From the IMG/VR virus record IMGVR_UViG_2537561562_000009: a stretch of 23,224 nt of DNA, one strand, 5' to 3'. This DNA is from a virus (Duplodnaviria; Heunggongvirae; Uroviricota; Caudoviricetes). Each line of letters opens with the position of its first letter. Within the stretch, counting starts at the first letter, position 1. A program made the translations under genes and the position numbers. Under the pieces are notes generated by a model, which was given only the letters and a program-made list of their open reading frames with translations, made no database searches and was not told where the DNA came from. Shown here piece by piece: positions 2,188-7,369 of the stretch.

Positions 2188-2308
2188 TGACTGAAATCGC
2201 GTCAGTACAGTAAACGCGCTGGTGGCGGTGAATACCTGTCTTTCAGCTTGCTGGCTTTTTCGACAAGAGTTATTGGTGTGTCACGTTAACCGGAAAAGGG
2301 AAAAAGAC

Positions 2309-2506
2309 ATGCTAAAACAGCAGGATATGACAGAAACCGCCAGAGTGGTGTTTAATGAATTAAGCGTTACCGAACCGGCGACAGTCGGGGAGATAGCGCA
2401 GAATACTTACCTTTCACGCGAACGCTGCCAGTTAATACTGACCCAGCTGGTTATGGCGGGTCTGGCAGACTATCAGTTCGGTTGTTACAGACGCCTTCCG
2501 CAGTGA
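2309..2506 (+). CDS. Small hypothetical protein, possible winged-helix DNA-binding fold (65 aa)
   Basis: In-frame ATG at 2309 inside track ORF 2222-2506, preceded by a purine-rich stretch (AAAAGGGAAAAAGAC). Helix-rich sequence ...TVGEIAQNTYLSRERCQLILTQLVMAGLADY suggests an HTH. Followed by a hairpin plus T-run. Confidence 0.4.
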   Translation: MLKQQDMTETARVVFNELSVTEPATVGEIAQNTYLSRERCQLILTQLVMAGLADYQFGCYRRLPQ

Positions 2507-2520
2507 AGGCTTTTTTATTT
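2493..2520 (+). terminator. Intrinsic terminator-like hairpin at end of small ORF
   Basis: Stem GCCTTC / GAAGGC (2493-2498 / 2505-2510), loop CGCAGT, then TTTTTTATTT (2511-2520). The ORF stop TGA lies inside the hairpin. Confidence 0.5.
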
Positions 2521-2656
2521 GTGGTAAATGGGCGGCTGGTGGGTGTTAGGGGCACCCACCAGCCATCTGCTCATGCGTTGGGTTCACAAGCAAACCTCAG
2601 GCCCACTGCTTTGCGCAAAAGCAGAATGAGCCTATCAGAGACAGGCTTAATGATCC

Positions 2657-3706
2657 ATGCTTGATACTGTAAAAATATCCAGTTGTGAGTTAATCAACGC
2701 CGACTGCCTGGAATTTATCCGGTCGTTACCCGAAAATTCTGTTGACCTGATAGTCACGGACCCGCCGTACTTTAAAGTGAAGCCTGAGGGCTGGGATAAC
2801 CAGTGGAAGGGCGACGATGATTACCTGAAGTGGCTGGACCAGTGTCTGGCGCAGTTCTGGCGGGGGCTGAAACCTGTCGGGAGTCTTTACCTGTTCTGTG
2901 GTCATCGCCTGGCATCTGATATCGAAATCATGATGCGTGAACGCTTCAGTGTGCTGAACCATATTATCTGGGCGAAGCCGTCCGGACGCTGGAACGGATG
3001 CAACAAGGAAAGCCTGCGGGCGTATTTCCCCGCCACAGAGCGCATTCTGTTCGCGGAACATTATCAGGGGCCGTATCGTCCGAAAGATGCCGGGTATGCG
3101 GCGAAGGGCAGTGCACTGAAACAGCATGTGATGGCCCCGCTGATTTCTTACTTTCGTGATGCGCGCGCGGCCCTGGGGATAACGGCAAAACAGATTGCAG
3201 ATGCCACAGGAAAGAAAAACATGGTGTCGCACTGGTTCAGTGCCAGTCAGTGGCAGCTACCGAACGAAAGCGATTATCTGAAATTACAGTCGCTGTTTGC
3301 CCGGGTGGCAGAAGAGAAACATCAGCGCGGTGAACTGGAAAAGCCCCACCACCAGCTGGTGGATACGTATACGTCACTGAACCGGCAGTATGTGGAGCTG
3401 CAGAGTGAATATAAGCATCTGCGGCGGTATTTTGGTGTGACGGCGCAGGTGCCGTACACGGATGTGTGGACACATAAACCGGTGCAGTTCTATCCCGGGA
3501 AACATCCGTGCGAAAAACCGGCAGAAATGCTGCAGCAGATAATCAGCGCAAGCAGTCGTCCGGGTGACCTGGTTGCAGATTTTTTTATGGGCTCAGGTTC
3601 AACGGTAAAAGCTGCACTGGCGCTCGGGCGTCGTGCGATTGGCGTTGAACTGGAGACCGGACGTTTTGAGCAGACAGTCAGGGAAGTTCAGGATTTAATC
3701 GTTTGA
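2657..3706 (+). CDS. Orphan DNA methyltransferase, beta-class (N6-adenine or N4-cytosine)
   Basis: 349 aa; catalytic DPPY motif near the N-terminus (LIVTDPPYF) and AdoMet-binding FxGxG motif near the C-terminus (DFFMGSGST), i.e. motif IV before motif I. No adjacent restriction endonuclease candidate. Confidence 0.85.
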   Translation: MLDTVKISSCELINADCLEFIRSLPENSVDLIVTDPPYFKVKPEGWDNQWKGDDDYLKWLDQCLAQFWRGLKPVGSLYLFCGHRLASDIEIMMRERFSVLNHIIWAKPSGRWNGCNKESLRAYFPATERILFAEHYQGPYRPKDAGYAAKGSALKQHVMAPLISYFRDARAALGITAKQIADATGKKNMVSHWFSASQWQLPNESDYLKLQSLFARVAEEKHQRGELEKPHHQLVDTYTSLNRQYVELQSEYKHLRRYFGVTAQVPYTDVWTHKPVQFYPGKHPCEKPAEMLQQIISASSRPGDLVADFFMGSGSTVKAALALGRRAIGVELETGRFEQTVREVQDLIV

Positions 3707-3755: not shown

Positions 3756-3831
3756 GGCCCTTTAGCTCAGTGGTGAGAGCGAGCGACTCATAATCGCCAG
3801 GTCGCTGGTTCAAATCCAGCAAGGGCCACCA
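3756..3831 (+). tRNA. tRNA with anticodon CAT (Met or lysidine-modified Ile2, ileZ-like)
   Basis: 76 nt; acceptor stem GGCCCTT / AAGGGCC, anticodon loop CTCATAA, T-loop GGTTCAAATCC, encoded 3' CCA. Confidence 0.85.
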
Positions 3832-3931
3832 TCACAAACCGCCATTAGCTTATCAGGAAGAGCAGACGACACGATAACAGGGTTGTTGGTGCGGGGGCGG
3901 GTCCCCGATGGCGGTCCATTATCGGTATTCA

Positions 3932-4008
3932 GCGTTGTTAGCTCAGCCGGACAGAGCAATTGCCTTCTAAGCAATCGGTCACTGGTTCGAATCCAGTACA
4001 GCGCGCCA
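3932..4008 (+). tRNA. tRNA-Arg (anticodon TCT)
   Basis: 77 nt; acceptor stem GCGTTGT / ACAGCGC with one G-U pair, D-arm AGCTCAGCCGGACAGAGC, anticodon loop CTTCTAA, T-loop GGTTCGAATCC, discriminator G plus CCA. Confidence 0.85.
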
Positions 4009-4145
4009 TATTCATTCTTCCAGATTCCTTTCGGCAGAGCCTTATACTGAAATATACCTGGCTCAGGATATTGTTGAAAATATTATATGTTTGTCAAAAA
4101 TAAAAGTTCTGTTAAGTGTTGATTGAGTGTTTGTTATACGGTCTA

Positions 4146-4472
4146 ATGGTTTTTTCAGCATTAAATATTTATCATTCATATGGTGTGGGTAGAGTGAATA
4201 TTGATGAGGCGTCGGGGTGTTTCATCCTTAGGCAGCGTATTGATATAGTCAATGCAGAACGAGCAAAGGCCTTCAGCCGTTTGACAGTTTTGTTCTGTAC
4301 TCCTGATCGTCTTTCGGGAAGAGACGTTATTATTCTGAATAGTGATGCTATACAGAGGGTTTGCGATGAGTTCATGGTTGCTAATTCAGAATTATTTGCT
4401 CTTGTTCAGGAGTACAACAGAATAGCCAGGACCTGTGGTATGGATGAACTTCGGATTACTCATCTGGGGTAG
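4146..4472 (+). CDS. Hypothetical protein in AT-rich cargo island (about 108 aa from ATG 4146; alternative GTG start at 4116)
   Basis: Open frame 4116-4472 in an AT-rich segment; no convincing Shine-Dalgarno and no recognisable motifs. Coding status uncertain. Confidence 0.3.
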   Translation: MVFSALNIYHSYGVGRVNIDEASGCFILRQRIDIVNAERAKAFSRLTVLFCTPDRLSGRDVIILNSDAIQRVCDEFMVANSELFALVQEYNRIARTCGMDELRITHLG

Positions 4473-4863
4473 ATACATATCTGGATTATCACCGGTTACG
4501 GTAAAAAGTGATTGCTTACTGTTTTTGTGAATGGCATTGCAGCAGCCGGATAATGTCAGTGCTGGCTGACGGTGTGCTGGTGGCGGGGGTGGGGGTTGCT
4601 GCTTTCCCGTTGCTGAAAAAGAAAACGCCAGACTGTTAGCCGGGTATCAGTTAGCGGGAGAAATTTTTAAATACTTCACAATTCAGGCGGTTGACTGTTG
4701 TCTGGTTTGCGGGGAGTTTGTTAAAAGAAACTGGCATGGTGAATCCCCCTGTGCGGAGGGGCAATCAGCGAGTAGGTATATGGGATAATCGCGGATTCAG
4801 GTGCTGGTACTGAATTCACCGGGAGGCACCCGGCACCATGCAATGGCACATAGCGCCACTCTC

Positions 4864-4899
4864 CAGCCCCTCTCCGGAGGGGCTGTTTATATTGATTTT
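4864..4899 (+). terminator. Strong intrinsic terminator hairpin within cargo island
   Basis: Perfect 9-bp stem CAGCCCCTC / GAGGGGCTG (4864-4872 / 4877-4885), 4-nt loop TCCG, followed by TTTATATTGATTTT. Confidence 0.55.
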
Positions 4900-4919
4900 G
4901 TCAGATGTGAGTAAACTCC

Positions 4920-5255
4920 TTATGGACTTTGTTGTTTTAGCCCATAAGGACATATTTGCAGAGTGCAACGGTTATTAAAGCATTCATTCAATACGTTATC
5001 TGTATTTGTAGGGCATTCCTGGCTGTTTTTGATTAAATTCCAGAATGTTTTATTGAATGGTACTACGTTGTAAATGGTTACAGGCAGCACTTTGTTATTG
5101 AGCATGATGCCTGTGTGAGTCAGTGTAAATATACTTTCAGGAGGTAAGAAAGCATCCGATTGATACCAGATTATTAATTTTATTTTACTCCATATGACTG
5201 AAAAAGATATTCCGCATGATGGCTGGATAACTGTATCAATCACAATCCACTTCAT
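4920..5255 (-). CDS. Hypothetical protein, minus strand, AT-rich cargo island (111 aa)
   Basis: ATG at 5255 preceded on the minus strand by AAGGAAACTAA (AGGAA about 6 nt upstream). Divergent from the downstream esterase gene across a 245-bp AT-rich intergenic region. No recognisable motifs. Confidence 0.35.
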
Positions 5256-5500
5256 TTAGTTTCCTTGTTTATGCCTTGCTGGTGATGTTCTGAAAAGTAT
5301 AAATGATATTTTTGATTGTAAACCATAGAGCAGAATTATTTTTCTGATGTTGTTTATTGTTTATTTAAATGCAGGGTGGTTTATATCTCGTCTTGTAGTT
5401 TATCCATGCATATCTGCTTGATGATGAGGTTTTTAATTAAGGTATGGTTTTGTGTTTTTTCTGTATTACATGTCAGGTATTTTAAAGAATCATTTTTCAG

Positions 5501-7369
5501 ATGGTGAAAAGAACCATGGCATTTAAACACTATGATGTTGTCAGGGCGGCGTCGCCGTCAGATCTTGCGGAAAAGCTGACACATAAACTGAAAGAGGGCT
5601 GGCAGCCGTTTGGTAGTCCGGTGGCCATAACCCCTTATACCCTGATGCAGGCGATTGCAGCAGAAGGTGATGTGGTCGTCAGTGGTGCAACTGAGCCGGA
5701 GTGGTACTACGTCATCGTACTGGCCGGGCAGTCCAATGCCATGGCTTACGGTGAAGGGCTTCCGCTTCCGGATTCATACGATGCGCCCCATCCGCGCATT
5801 AAGCAACTGGCCCGTCGTAACACAGTGACTCCCGGTGGTGAAGTATGCGTATTTAACGACATCATTCCTGCTGACCATTGTCTGCATGATGTTCAGGATA
5901 TGAGTACGATTAACCATCCCCGGGCTGACCTGAGCAAAGGGCAGTACGGCTGTGTCGGCCAGGGCTTACATATTGCCAAAAAACTGCTTCCGTATATCCC
6001 TAATAATGCGGGGATCCTGCTGGTACCATGCTGTCGTGGTGGTTCGGCATTCACCCAGGGCACGGAGGGGACATTCAGCGAGTCCACGGGGGCCAGTCAG
6101 GATTCGGCTCGCTGGGGAGTGGGTAAGCCGTTATATCAGGATCTGCTTTTCCGCACGAAGGCAGCATTGCAGAAAAACCCGAAAAACGTTTTGCTGGCGA
6201 TATGCTGGATGCAGGGGGAATTCGATATGACGAATGCCAGTTACGCCCAGCAGCCAGCAGCATTTCTTGCAATGGTACAGCAGTTCCGTGCTGACCTTGC
6301 CGGGCTGGCAGCGCAGTGTCACGGTGGAAGTCCGGCATCAGTCCCCTGGATTTGTGGCGACACGACATACGCGTGGAAACAAGAACACGGTACGCAATAT
6401 GAAGTGGTATATGGTGCATATAAAGGTAAAGAATCCCAGCAGATTTATTTTGTTCCCTTTATGACCGATGGTAGCGGAGTTAATACACCGACAAACAACC
6501 CGTCAGAAGATCCTGATATTGCCGGGTCTGGTTATTACGGTTCGGCATCCCGAACGAACAAAAACTGGGTATCATCAAATCGCCCGACGCATTTCAGCTC
6601 ATGGGCGCGTCGTGGCATTATTCCCGATCGTATGGCAACTGCTATTCTGAACGTAGCCGGGCGCACCTCAGCCTTCATCAGTGGTAAGGCACCGGAAATC
6701 AAACCCTCGCCCGGCGGCGACACGCCATCGGGTCCGTCTGCAGATACGTCCGTTCGCACAATCTCCCTGCTGCCGACAGCCGGAGAGGCTGCTGCGCAGG
6801 GCTGGACCATTAAGGACGGCGGAATTCAGTTGTCGGGTGGTGTATTTAAGATCGCCAAGCAGAGCAATAAAGCCTGGTCCCTGACGCGCCCGGTGGATGA
6901 CGCAGTCTCCCTGCTGACACGGGGTGGCAGACTGAGCTGTAAGTTTCGACTGTCAGGCGCACTGACCAACAATCAGTTCGGTCTGGGAATTTATCTGTAT
7001 ACCGATGTAGCGTTACCTGACGTCGTGGCGATGACCGGGACTGGTAACCCGTTCCTGATGTCGTTCTTCACCCAGACCACAGACGGCAAACTGAATCTGA
7101 TGCATCACAAGAAAGCAGGAAACACAAAGTTGGGCGAGTTCGGGAATTACAGTAACGACTGGCAGACGCTGGAGCTGGTGTTCACCGCCGGCAGTGCCAC
7201 GGTTACTCCGAAACTGAATGGAGTGGCTGGCCCGGCATTCCAGGCCATAAAAGACAGTCTGGCAGTGGGACTAAATGCACTGACGCTGACGGATATTACC
7301 AAAAATGCAACGTATGGCGTTGAGATAGAAAGTCTGGTGCTGGAGATAAATGCACCGGCATCATCATAA
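5501..7369 (+). CDS. nanS-p: Prophage sialate O-acetylesterase-like protein (NanS-p-like; DUF1737 N-domain plus SGNH hydrolase plus C-terminal domain)
   Basis: 622 aa; SGNH block-I-like motif YYVIVLAGQSNAMAYGEG about 20 residues after the N-terminal domain; position between the tRNA/cargo region and the holin matches NanS-p of Stx and related lambdoid prophages. True start may be the second ATG at 5516 (MAFKHYD...). Confidence 0.7.
   Translation: MVKRTMAFKHYDVVRAASPSDLAEKLTHKLKEGWQPFGSPVAITPYTLMQAIAAEGDVVVSGATEPEWYYVIVLAGQSNAMAYGEGLPLPDSYDAPHPRIKQLARRNTVTPGGEVCVFNDIIPADHCLHDVQDMSTINHPRADLSKGQYGCVGQGLHIAKKLLPYIPNNAGILLVPCCRGGSAFTQGTEGTFSESTGASQDSARWGVGKPLYQDLLFRTKAALQKNPKNVLLAICWMQGEFDMTNASYAQQPAAFLAMVQQFRADLAGLAAQCHGGSPASVPWICGDTTYAWKQEHGTQYEVVYGAYKGKESQQIYFVPFMTDGSGVNTPTNNPSEDPDIAGSGYYGSASRTNKNWVSSNRPTHFSSWARRGIIPDRMATAILNVAGRTSAFISGKAPEIKPSPGGDTPSGPSADTSVRTISLLPTAGEAAAQGWTIKDGGIQLSGGVFKIAKQSNKAWSLTRPVDDAVSLLTRGGRLSCKFRLSGALTNNQFGLGIYLYTDVALPDVVAMTGTGNPFLMSFFTQTTDGKLNLMHHKKAGNTKLGEFGNYSNDWQTLELVFTAGSATVTPKLNGVAGPAFQAIKDSLAVGLNALTLTDITKNATYGVEIESLVLEINAPASS

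Follow-up and report, generated by a model that had tools for sequence, protein, structure and literature searches.

An M.EcoGII-type methyltransferase gene of lambdoid prophages is linked to a small winged-helix gene, a structured leader and a conserved upstream block

Introduction

The M.EcoGII family of DNA methyltransferases has already been characterised and is marketed as a reagent. Here we describe the setting of a gene of this family in a stretch of DNA of 23,224 nucleotides (nt) from a member of the Caudoviricetes (IMG/VR record IMGVR_UViG_2537561562_000009; this whole stretch is called the window), where the gene is preceded by an open reading frame (ORF) for a 65-amino-acid (aa) winged-helix protein, by a structured leader of 150 nt between the two genes and by a conserved sequence block further upstream. 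The methyltransferase is an ordinary finding that was already known; the small protein, the leader and the upstream block are an uncharacterised and modestly interesting lead. Literature searches returned no paper on the regulation of the cassette and, in the literature searched, no description of the small-protein linkage, the structured leader or the upstream block. Their interest lies in how phages silence and then switch on a toxic, indiscriminate methyltransferase.

The closest described enzymes, M.EcoGII and M.EcoGI, are encoded by prophages of E. coli O104:H4 C227-11 (Murray et al. 2018; PMC5778455). Adenine is methylated by M.EcoGII irrespective of context, and M.EcoGI, from another prophage of the same strain, is identical to it at 333 of 349 positions and likewise non-specific; neither is expressed in the lysogen, constitutive expression is harmful to the cell, and phage 1720a-02 and further enterobacterial phages carry very similar genes (PMC5778455). 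An extremely relaxed specificity has been shown experimentally for two further phage enzymes, p25 of Serratia phage OS31 and p56 of Aeromonas phage phiARM81ld (PMC7556043). The M.EcoGII and M.EcoGI publications consulted for the family make no mention of an upstream 65-aa gene or of a leader.

In phage Mu, mom is a toxic DNA-modification gene directed at adenine, which is expressed late and stays silent in the lysogen; Mom itself is not a methyltransferase. Mu Com, with about 60-65 aa, is a Cys4 zinc ribbon, the com gene overlaps mom, and the mRNA has a leader structure beside the start codon. The parallel between Mom and M.EcoGII has been drawn before (PMC12707154).

Results and discussion

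A conserved cassette with near-obligately linked parts

The conserved unit is a cassette of about 1.46 kb (about 2247-3706), which in the lambdoid prophages of Enterobacterales is placed after the Q/pR'/tR' module and before the lysis genes. Its parts in the window are the following.

2247-2284, + strand: conserved upstream block, CTTGCTG-N13/14-CAGAGTTAT(C/T)TG(T)ATGTCAC, from an alignment of 23 loci in about 12 genera.
2309-2506, + strand: gene for a 65-aa stand-alone winged-helix protein, phrog_331 (E=1.4e-37), annotated 'hypothetical' or 'TrmB family'.
2493-2516, + strand: T1, a terminator-like hairpin GCCTTC/GAAGGC (2493-2510) with a T-run, from a terminator scan; it encloses the stop codon of the small ORF.
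2528-2574, + strand: H2, the long leader hairpin AUGGGC GGCUGGUGGGUG ... CACCCACCAGCC ... GCUCAU, a 12-bp perfect inverted repeat folded by RNAalifold into about 17 bp.
2582-2655, + strand: domain 3 of the leader, nested helices, from RNAalifold and a covariance-model alignment.
2657-3706, + strand: M.EcoGII-family beta-class N6-adenine DNA methyltransferase, 349 aa, predicted to be sequence-non-specific from PF01555 and its identity to M.EcoGII.

We consider it likely that this is a late M.EcoGII-type cassette controlled by the antiterminator Q, in which the small protein and the leader are dedicated parts that probably control expression of the methyltransferase. The small ORF, the leader and the upstream block are under purifying selection, and these three parts are near-obligately linked. 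When one genome per species was searched with the small ORF as seed, 28 loci were found and the methyltransferase gene follows in 27 of them; the exception, L025 (3980-4310), is a decayed copy that has kept the leader but has a small ORF without its N-terminus and a deleted methyltransferase gene. A search seeded with the methyltransferase found the small ORF in all 74 viral contigs with enough upstream sequence, the distance from start codon to start codon being 347-349 nt in 73 of these. Each locus has a single copy of the leader, and this is invariably in the spacer position. Another decayed locus is L024 of Erwinia tracheiphila (4001-5380), with a frameshifted methyltransferase gene and a small ORF whose stop codon is lost.

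A preliminary description of this DNA had presented the cassette as a possible novelty, which it is not, as it is present in about half of complete E. coli genomes: a 1.67-kb region was found in 2517 of 5426, with up to eight copies each, and 163 records match this region at 99% or more. The spacer between the two genes, searched alone, was found in 2881 genomes and, in the spanning rows that were sampled, sits between genes annotated 'hypothetical protein' and 'DNA-methyltransferase'. Phage records with the cassette number 41, most of them from Stx2a/2c/2d/2e converting phages, and phage 1720a-02 matches it as a whole at 94.6% nucleotide identity.

The genes L23-L24 of phiP27 and the Q-to-stx interval of Stx2a/2c/2d/2e phages have the same order of small ORF, 150-nt spacer, methyltransferase gene and tRNAs at 83-95% nucleotide identity, and the L23 protein of phiP27 is 100% identical to the small protein. 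These phages differ from the window in that a stx operon, of which the window has none, follows the tRNAs, and the type of Q differs between phages. The cassette behaves as a moron in being paired with several unrelated Q types and in being followed by tRNAs and stx or directly by the holin gene. In other genera, holin and lysozyme genes come directly after the methyltransferase gene; the tRNAs adjoin the cassette on its 3' side solely in E. coli Stx-type phages and do not belong to the conserved unit.

The methyltransferase is closely related to non-specific M.EcoGII

The methyltransferase matches PF01555 (N6_N4_Mtase) at E=6e-43 (cutoff 26.7 bits) and has DPPY at residues 35-38 and FMGSG at residues 310-314, which is the beta-class motif order and confirms the earlier assignment of the 349-aa product to this class on the strength of DPPY followed by FxGxG. 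PADLOC labels it MTase_II (PDLC03265, E=3e-165), and M.RsrI, CcrM and M.MboIIA are among its solved relatives. Over its full length it is identical to M.EcoGII, also 349 aa, at 328 of 350 positions, or about 94%, a count that is approximate because the reference is a machine-read sequence from the supplement of PMC11551740 with a few obvious glitches. It is 87% identical to L24 of phiP27.

Like M.EcoGII and M.EcoGI, this enzyme has 349 aa, carries DPPY before FxGxG, is borne by a prophage, here in a lambdoid late region, and has no endonuclease partner. That no restriction enzyme accompanies it had been stated before, and we likewise found no restriction endonuclease in the 23-kb window, where the nucleases present are terminase, RusA and an HNH-like DUF968 protein. 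The window enzyme differs from M.EcoGII in being a distinct allele with about 20 substitutions, the activity of which is predicted by sequence similarity. Lack of specificity is to be expected in this allele, since M.EcoGI and M.EcoGII, both of them non-specific, are about as far apart (333/349). Among the more distant enzymes, OS31 p25 is 67% identical to L24 of phiP27 and the phiARM81ld p56 methyltransferase has 55% identity. From the 94% identity to M.EcoGII, together with non-specific relatives at only 55-67% identity, we infer with some force that the enzyme methylates the N6 of adenine in any sequence context.

It follows from non-specificity of the M.EcoGII type that a discrete modified motif, which the preliminary description had proposed to find by methylome sequencing, is not to be expected. 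Its suggestion that the enzyme protects phage DNA from host restriction fares better, this being the accepted reading for the M.EcoGII family (PMC5778455; PMC12707154); for the window allele, the anti-restriction role would extend from its relatives by sequence similarity, as would toxicity and silence in the lysogen.

The small protein is a stand-alone winged helix

In the ORF listing, the small gene appears as a 94-aa ORF from GTG 2222 to 2506 with an internal ATG at 2309 that yields the 65-aa product. ATG 2309 is the true start: it is the RefSeq-annotated start in a 99.8%-identical locus, an AAGGG Shine-Dalgarno sequence lies 8 nt 5' of it, and the region 5' of 2309 is not conserved as coding sequence in the aligned related loci. 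The coordinates given earlier for the gene pair were thus right except at their left end, 2222, which is merely the most upstream option. Conservation, which had been named as a check on the small ORF, marks it as a real gene under purifying selection, with a median dN/dS of 0.14 over about 12 genera and differences by codon position of 314/272/754, so that third positions carry most.

An AF2 model of the small protein (helix-helix-helix-beta-hairpin, pLDDT 92) upholds the winged-helix-like assignment that had been read from the sequence. Foldseek searches of PDB and BFVD gave generic winged-helix matches only (E about 2e-3), namely MarR/OhrR, IclR, N-terminal domains of O-methyltransferases, MotA, the RNA-binding winged helix of SelB, TrmB, ArsR and Z-alpha. 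The match to PF01978 (TrmB) reaches 18.0 bits (E=0.0026), below the Pfam gathering score of 25.6; the database label 'TrmB family' rests on weak similarity, and it is the generic winged-helix fold alone that is supported. A putative recognition helix, CQLILTQLV, is invariant across homologues, and the only cysteines of the protein are C40 and C59. This is a very small family: a search of 1.84 billion proteins yielded 84 representatives at 50% identity. Its credible members all stand alone and have at most 114 aa, and we discounted as spurious two weak multi-stretch matches (E about 4e-5) to long proteins. The small ORF was not assigned to any defence system by PADLOC.

The preliminary description had likened the small protein to the C proteins of restriction-modification (R-M) systems. 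A regulatory role, as part of that comparison, is plausible from the position of the gene; identity as an Xre-type C protein is ruled out by the winged-helix model. R-M C proteins resemble the small protein in being of a nucleic-acid-binding type and encoded 5' of a modification gene, and they differ in having an Xre-type helix-turn-helix (HTH) rather than a winged helix. Moreover, the window contains no endonuclease to delay and no demonstrable C-box, the upstream block holding merely a short imperfect palindrome, CAGA-N4-TCTG, that is lost in some homologues, for example L013 and L032. The same observations bear on the idea that the cassette encodes a sequence-specific orphan methyltransferase with a defined epigenetic motif under the control of a C-protein-like transcription factor. 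The beta-class motif order and PF01555 match would suit such an enzyme, and the small DNA-binding-type fold encoded 5' and the palindrome in the conserved block would suit such a factor, but the 94% identity to M.EcoGII and the non-specificity of relatives at 55-67% identity argue against the former, and the winged-helix fold, the missing endonuclease and the loss of the palindrome in the two loci named argue against the latter, making this explanation highly improbable.

Alternatively, the small protein might act on the enzyme or on its product, as an accessory or targeting subunit or as a reader of N6-methyladenine (m6A) in DNA. Such a role would account for the strict linkage, the top fold matches are N-terminal winged-helix dimerisation domains of methyltransferases that depend on S-adenosylmethionine, and winged-helix domains can sense m6A according to the literature. 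M.EcoGII, however, needs no partner for full activity in vitro (PMC5778455), a search for Rosetta-stone fusions between the small protein and a methyltransferase found none among the 1.84 billion representatives, and the fold matches are of the generic kind. We regard an accessory-subunit or m6A-reader role as less likely than a regulatory one and, taken by itself, as very unlikely.

A structured leader is more conserved than the genes around it

The preliminary description missed both T1 and the conserved leader. The 150-nt spacer between the small ORF and the methyltransferase gene is non-coding and structured, and it measures 147-154 nt in every long-leader locus except L026, where it has 137 nt. 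It is 75-85% identical to the window in relatives in which the 4-fold degenerate sites of the adjacent methyltransferase gene are 25-38% identical, that is, saturated, and is therefore more conserved than either flanking coding sequence. A leader peptide was considered and rejected, as the ORF that starts at a conserved ATG (MGGWWVL...) can be as short as 3 or as long as 45 codons and there are 1-nt indels in the alignment.

RNAalifold, realignment with a covariance model and independent single-sequence folds agree on T1, H2 and domain 3. Four of the six pairs of T1 show compensatory double changes across homologues, and 98-99% of cells are paired in H2, where the changes are G-U-compatible as well as compensatory, for example in the Plesiomonas locus. 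The closing helix of domain 3 (GGUCA/UGAUC in most homologues) ends one nucleotide (2656) before the methyltransferase AUG (2657). When the leaders of the window and of a Kluyvera homologue are each folded as single sequences, the same architecture results, at z about -3.6. For 43 distinct leader sequences, in an alignment that was fitted to the proposed structure, 95.4% of structure cells are paired as compared to 28-46% in slid-partner controls, and 10 pairs have changes on both sides as compared to 3-7 in slid controls. Around the start codons, the median unpaired probability is 0.37 for the methyltransferase and 0.48 for the small ORF, a modest occlusion, and the median pairing energy with the anti-Shine-Dalgarno sequence is -2.4 and -4.3 kcal/mol, respectively; both predicted contrasts are weakly supportive of control by the structured leader.

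The spacer gave no match in Rfam at a permissive threshold other than a sub-threshold one to P26 on the wrong strand. It was also rejected as one of the known prophage small RNAs (sRNAs), being none of AgvB, AsxR, PasA-D and STnc100. Those lie elsewhere, AgvB and AsxR downstream of moron genes (PMC4104026) and PasD/STnc100 and PasA on either side of the esterase gene (bioRxiv 10.64898/2026.05.13.724894).

The conservation of the spacer could also reflect a function of the DNA itself, as a Chi hotspot, in protection from RecBCD or as a module-junction sequence. The left arm of H2 contains a Chi site (GCTGGTGG, 2535-2542), and with a further site at 2218-2225 and ten more the window contains 12 as against 1.27 expected, an over-representation of about 9-fold. 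In the related loci L002-L032 and L113-L115, Chi occurs at 0.71/kb on the + (late-gene) strand and 0.23/kb on the other, a skew of 3:1; it is found at a fixed position in the leader hairpin in 26 of 30 loci and is kept in the otherwise unrelated short leader of L113-115. On our reading of lambda genetics, the orientation of Chi on the + strand is the active one for RecBCD entering through the right cos end. While these observations favour a role at the DNA level, Chi makes up 8 of about 130 conserved bases, the hairpin is kept where Chi is broken (Plesiomonas, Buttiauxella B2 and G50), in Plesiomonas by means of compensatory changes in the other arm, and changes in the right arm are G-U-compatible on the + strand transcript only, so that we consider this explanation unlikely.

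Elsewhere in the cassette, overlapping Chi sites on both strands (CCACCAGCTGGTGG, 3349-3362) encode the conserved PHHQLV motif of the methyltransferase, and the overlapping pair recurs at +692/+698 in many methyltransferase homologues.

Candidate promoter and terminator-like elements around the cassette

The preliminary description had placed the gene pair directly downstream of Q and tR' at the head of the late operon, and this placement is borne out by a PF03589 match and a terminator scan. The elements concerned, of which Q is context and lies outside the conserved cassette, are the following.

1261-2082, + strand: late antiterminator Q, 273 aa, PF03589 (Antiterm) at E=3.5e-51, phrog_127 and phrog_25523 (anti-termination protein Q-like).
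2088-2115, + strand: candidate pR', with a -35 element TTGATT (2088-2093), a 16-nt spacer and an extended -10 element TGgTAAATT (2107-2115), read from the sequence and its position.
2165-2186, + strand: tR'-like intrinsic terminator CCCGCC GCCT GGCGGG TTTTTT, a 6-bp all-GC hairpin with a T-run, from the terminator scan.

The candidate pR' scores below the 9-of-12 threshold of the promoter scan and is assigned by inference. A GC hairpin and T-run equivalent to the tR'-like terminator are present 5' of the cassette in nearly all related loci.

The upstream block, with the short-form consensus CTTGCTG-N13/14-CAGAGTTATCTGTATGTCAC, is the sole conserved stretch 5' of the small ORF in the 23 aligned loci, usually has an intrinsic terminator on its 5' side, and is kept in a relative whose small protein matches the family profile at E about 1e-6. 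It marks the cassette's left edge, and we take it as a candidate promoter, operator or element of the 5' untranslated region. No canonical sigma-70 promoter was found by promoter scan and alignment in the block or after T1, and the block has no sigma-70-like -10 element because its candidate hexamer, TAYNTG, lacks a conserved final T. Compared by eye with motifs of the sigma-54, sigma-32, sigma-E and CII types, the block showed no convincing match. Of the promoter and terminator that a moron may bring along, the cassette has a terminator-like element in T1, after the small ORF, and an upstream block devoid of canonical sigma-70 elements.

These findings bear on another explanation, in which the small protein is a DNA-binding transcription factor that acts at the block (2247-2284) and autoregulates a cassette promoter, the leader having an independent function, for example as an RNase III or stability element; the small ORF may then be expressed in the lysogen and its transcript terminated at T1. 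The block is the most widely conserved non-coding piece of the cassette and persists where the protein has diverged, the recognition helix is invariant, the nearest folds include DNA binders of the MarR, IclR and TrmB type, and a terminator-like hairpin parts the two genes in long-leader and short-leader families alike, which is the layout of a self-contained moron unit. On the other hand, the missing -10 element and the near-neutral charge of the protein weigh against it, and the N15-type homologue lies 5' of an annotated late promoter, which is another arrangement. We regard this explanation as a tentative possibility that falls well short of probable.

Two short repeats were noted in this region: the extended -10 region of the candidate pR' (ATCTGTGGTAAAT, 2102-2114) is repeated after T1 as ATTTGTGGTAAAT (2517-2529), and the tail of tR' (GGGTTTTTTAT, 2178-2188) is repeated just past T1 as GGCTTTTTTAT (2508-2518). 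Both repeats could be a remnant of a promoter-terminator module or a second such module. N15 and phiKO2 have an annotated late promoter and terminator at the equivalent spot 5' of the methyltransferase leader.

Distant relatives and comparison with Mu com-mom

The most informative pointers to function come from more distant relatives. A tblastn search of phage genomes found homologues of the methyltransferase at 50-62% identity in phages of Providencia, Aeromonas and Vibrio and in N15, phiKO2 and PY54, and the gene adjoins lysis genes in the six records examined (phiARM81ld, N15, phiKO2, PY54, VHML and phiO18P). The Providencia phage and the loci L113-115 retain the small winged-helix gene in the same position. 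In L113-115 the leader is about 73 nt long and consists of a single hairpin with a U-run, and the methyltransferase gene has a good Shine-Dalgarno sequence.

In the linear plasmid prophages N15 (gp51-gp52) and phiKO2 (Gp51-Gp52), as in the window, a homologous methyltransferase (57-60% identity) has a small gene just 5' of it, a terminator lies between the two genes, and lysis genes follow. N15 gp51 and phiKO2 Gp51 (75 aa) are probable distant homologues of the small protein, the homology being weak (hhalign probability 72%, E=3e-5; hmmsearch E about 1e-4). The arrangement differs from that in the window by a late promoter and a terminator, annotated by the depositors, between Gp51 and the methyltransferase gene, which place the small gene outside the late operon.

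Support for a regulatory function of the gene 5' of the methyltransferase comes from phiARM81ld. Its p55-p56 pair shares with the window a homologous non-specific methyltransferase (PMC7556043), a position at the head of the lysis region and a small regulator-type gene directly 5'. In the place of the small ORF, this locus (L116, 1329-1544) has a gene for a 'translational regulator Com-like protein' that scores above threshold against PF10122 and has a 77-nt overlap with the beginning of the methyltransferase gene, as in the com-mom arrangement of Mu; it thus differs from the window in that the 5' gene is a true Com-family zinc ribbon overlapping the methyltransferase gene and not a winged helix. 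This similarity suggests that Com-type translational control has been recruited to M.EcoGII-type enzymes as well as to mom. The small protein of the window is itself no member of the Com family, as it has no match to PF10122 (Zn_ribbon_Com), the weak TrmB match being its sole Pfam hit, and no Cys4. Mu com-mom and the cassette have in common a modification gene that is preceded by a small-protein gene and by an mRNA leader structure near the start codon; they differ in that the small protein here is a winged helix with two cysteines, encoded 150 nt from the methyltransferase gene, and its RNA binding is putative.

A model for control of the methyltransferase

In the model that we propose, transcription from pR' in the lysogen would stop at tR', T1 would form a second terminator-like barrier, and the methyltransferase would be silent, its synthesis being further limited by a weak ribosome-binding region behind the structured leader. 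Upon induction, Q-modified RNA polymerase would read through tR' and T1, and the enzyme, made late, would heavily methylate replicating phage DNA before it is packaged, so that the methylated progeny DNA would be protected from many restriction systems in the next host while a cell near lysis would bear no cost from methyltransferase toxicity. The order of candidate promoter, terminator-like hairpins and genes is observed, and Q-dependence of methyltransferase expression by read-through of tR' and T1 is what this anatomy would lead one to expect.

By analogy, we hypothesise that the small protein regulates expression of the methyltransferase. We favour a post-transcriptional action through the leader, such as that of Mu Com on mom, because a relative has a true Com gene in the equivalent place and because selection on the leader is strong; control of transcription, exerted at the upstream block, appears nearly as plausible. 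It is tempting to go further and speculate that, in function, the small protein is a counterpart of Mu Com that lacks a zinc finger and would bind the leader hairpins and license translation of the methyltransferase mRNA or stabilise it. In this specific form the proposal is rather doubtful; if it were true, the small protein and leader would make up, with the upstream block, a dedicated three-part safety switch in the prophages of about half of complete E. coli genomes.

Several observations weigh against control of the methyltransferase by the small protein and leader, or limit the case for it. The argument proceeds from homology, position and linkage, from which the activity and expression of this allele and the binding of the small protein are deduced, and the count of identities to M.EcoGII inherits the glitches of its reference. 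The small protein has a near-neutral charge and no homology to Com, and in OS31 a toxin-antitoxin-like pair, not the small ORF, has been described 5' of the methyltransferase gene, which implies that the small protein is not universally required. As to the leader, covariation is limited because the sequence is so conserved, the pair counts come from an alignment already fitted to the structure, the predicted occlusion of the start region is modest, and the weak Shine-Dalgarno pairing of -2.4 kcal/mol has parallels in other late genes of the window.

If the parts do form a control switch, this would explain how up to eight copies of such a gene are tolerated in about half of E. coli strains, would provide a compact module for expressing toxic DNA-modifying enzymes, and would clarify how Stx-type phages cross restriction barriers.

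Genomic context of the cassette

The 23-kb window is the late region of a lambda-like (lambdoid) E. coli prophage that resembles Stx phages and is itself stx-less. It starts with a DUF968/HNH-like gene, RusA, Q, the tR'-like hairpin, the 65-aa ORF, the spacer and the methyltransferase gene, continues with tRNA(CAT), tRNA-Arg(TCT), an ORF of unknown function, STnc100, IraM and a NanS-type esterase, and has holin, lysozyme, Rz, Nu1, terminase, portal, protease, capsid and tail tube genes at its downstream end. One further feature adjoins the cassette.

3756-4008, + strand: tRNA(CAT) and tRNA-Arg(TCT), from ARAGORN, the Rfam tRNA family and RefSeq annotation in relatives, where tRNA(CAT) is labelled tRNA-Ile (ileZ-like).

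Within 3756-7369, the ileZ-like and argO-like tRNAs and a NanS-p-type sialate esterase (DUF1737-SASA-DUF6645) are ordered as in Stx2 phages. There is no stx operon between the tRNAs and the esterase gene, which makes the prophage a stx-less sibling of Stx-converting phages; phiP27 has the same architecture, that of a Stx-converting phage, from which the window differs by the stx operon. On the 3' side of the tRNAs, a 118-aa ORF at 4116-4472 (+) belongs to phrog_2873, to which no function is assigned. It is followed by the STnc100 sRNA at 4705-4894 (+; 132 bits), which a 2026 preprint terms a PasD relative (bioRxiv 10.64898/2026.05.13.724894). Beside STnc100, on the opposite strand, an ORF at 4920-5255 (-) encodes a product 100% identical to the RefSeq anti-adapter protein IraM.

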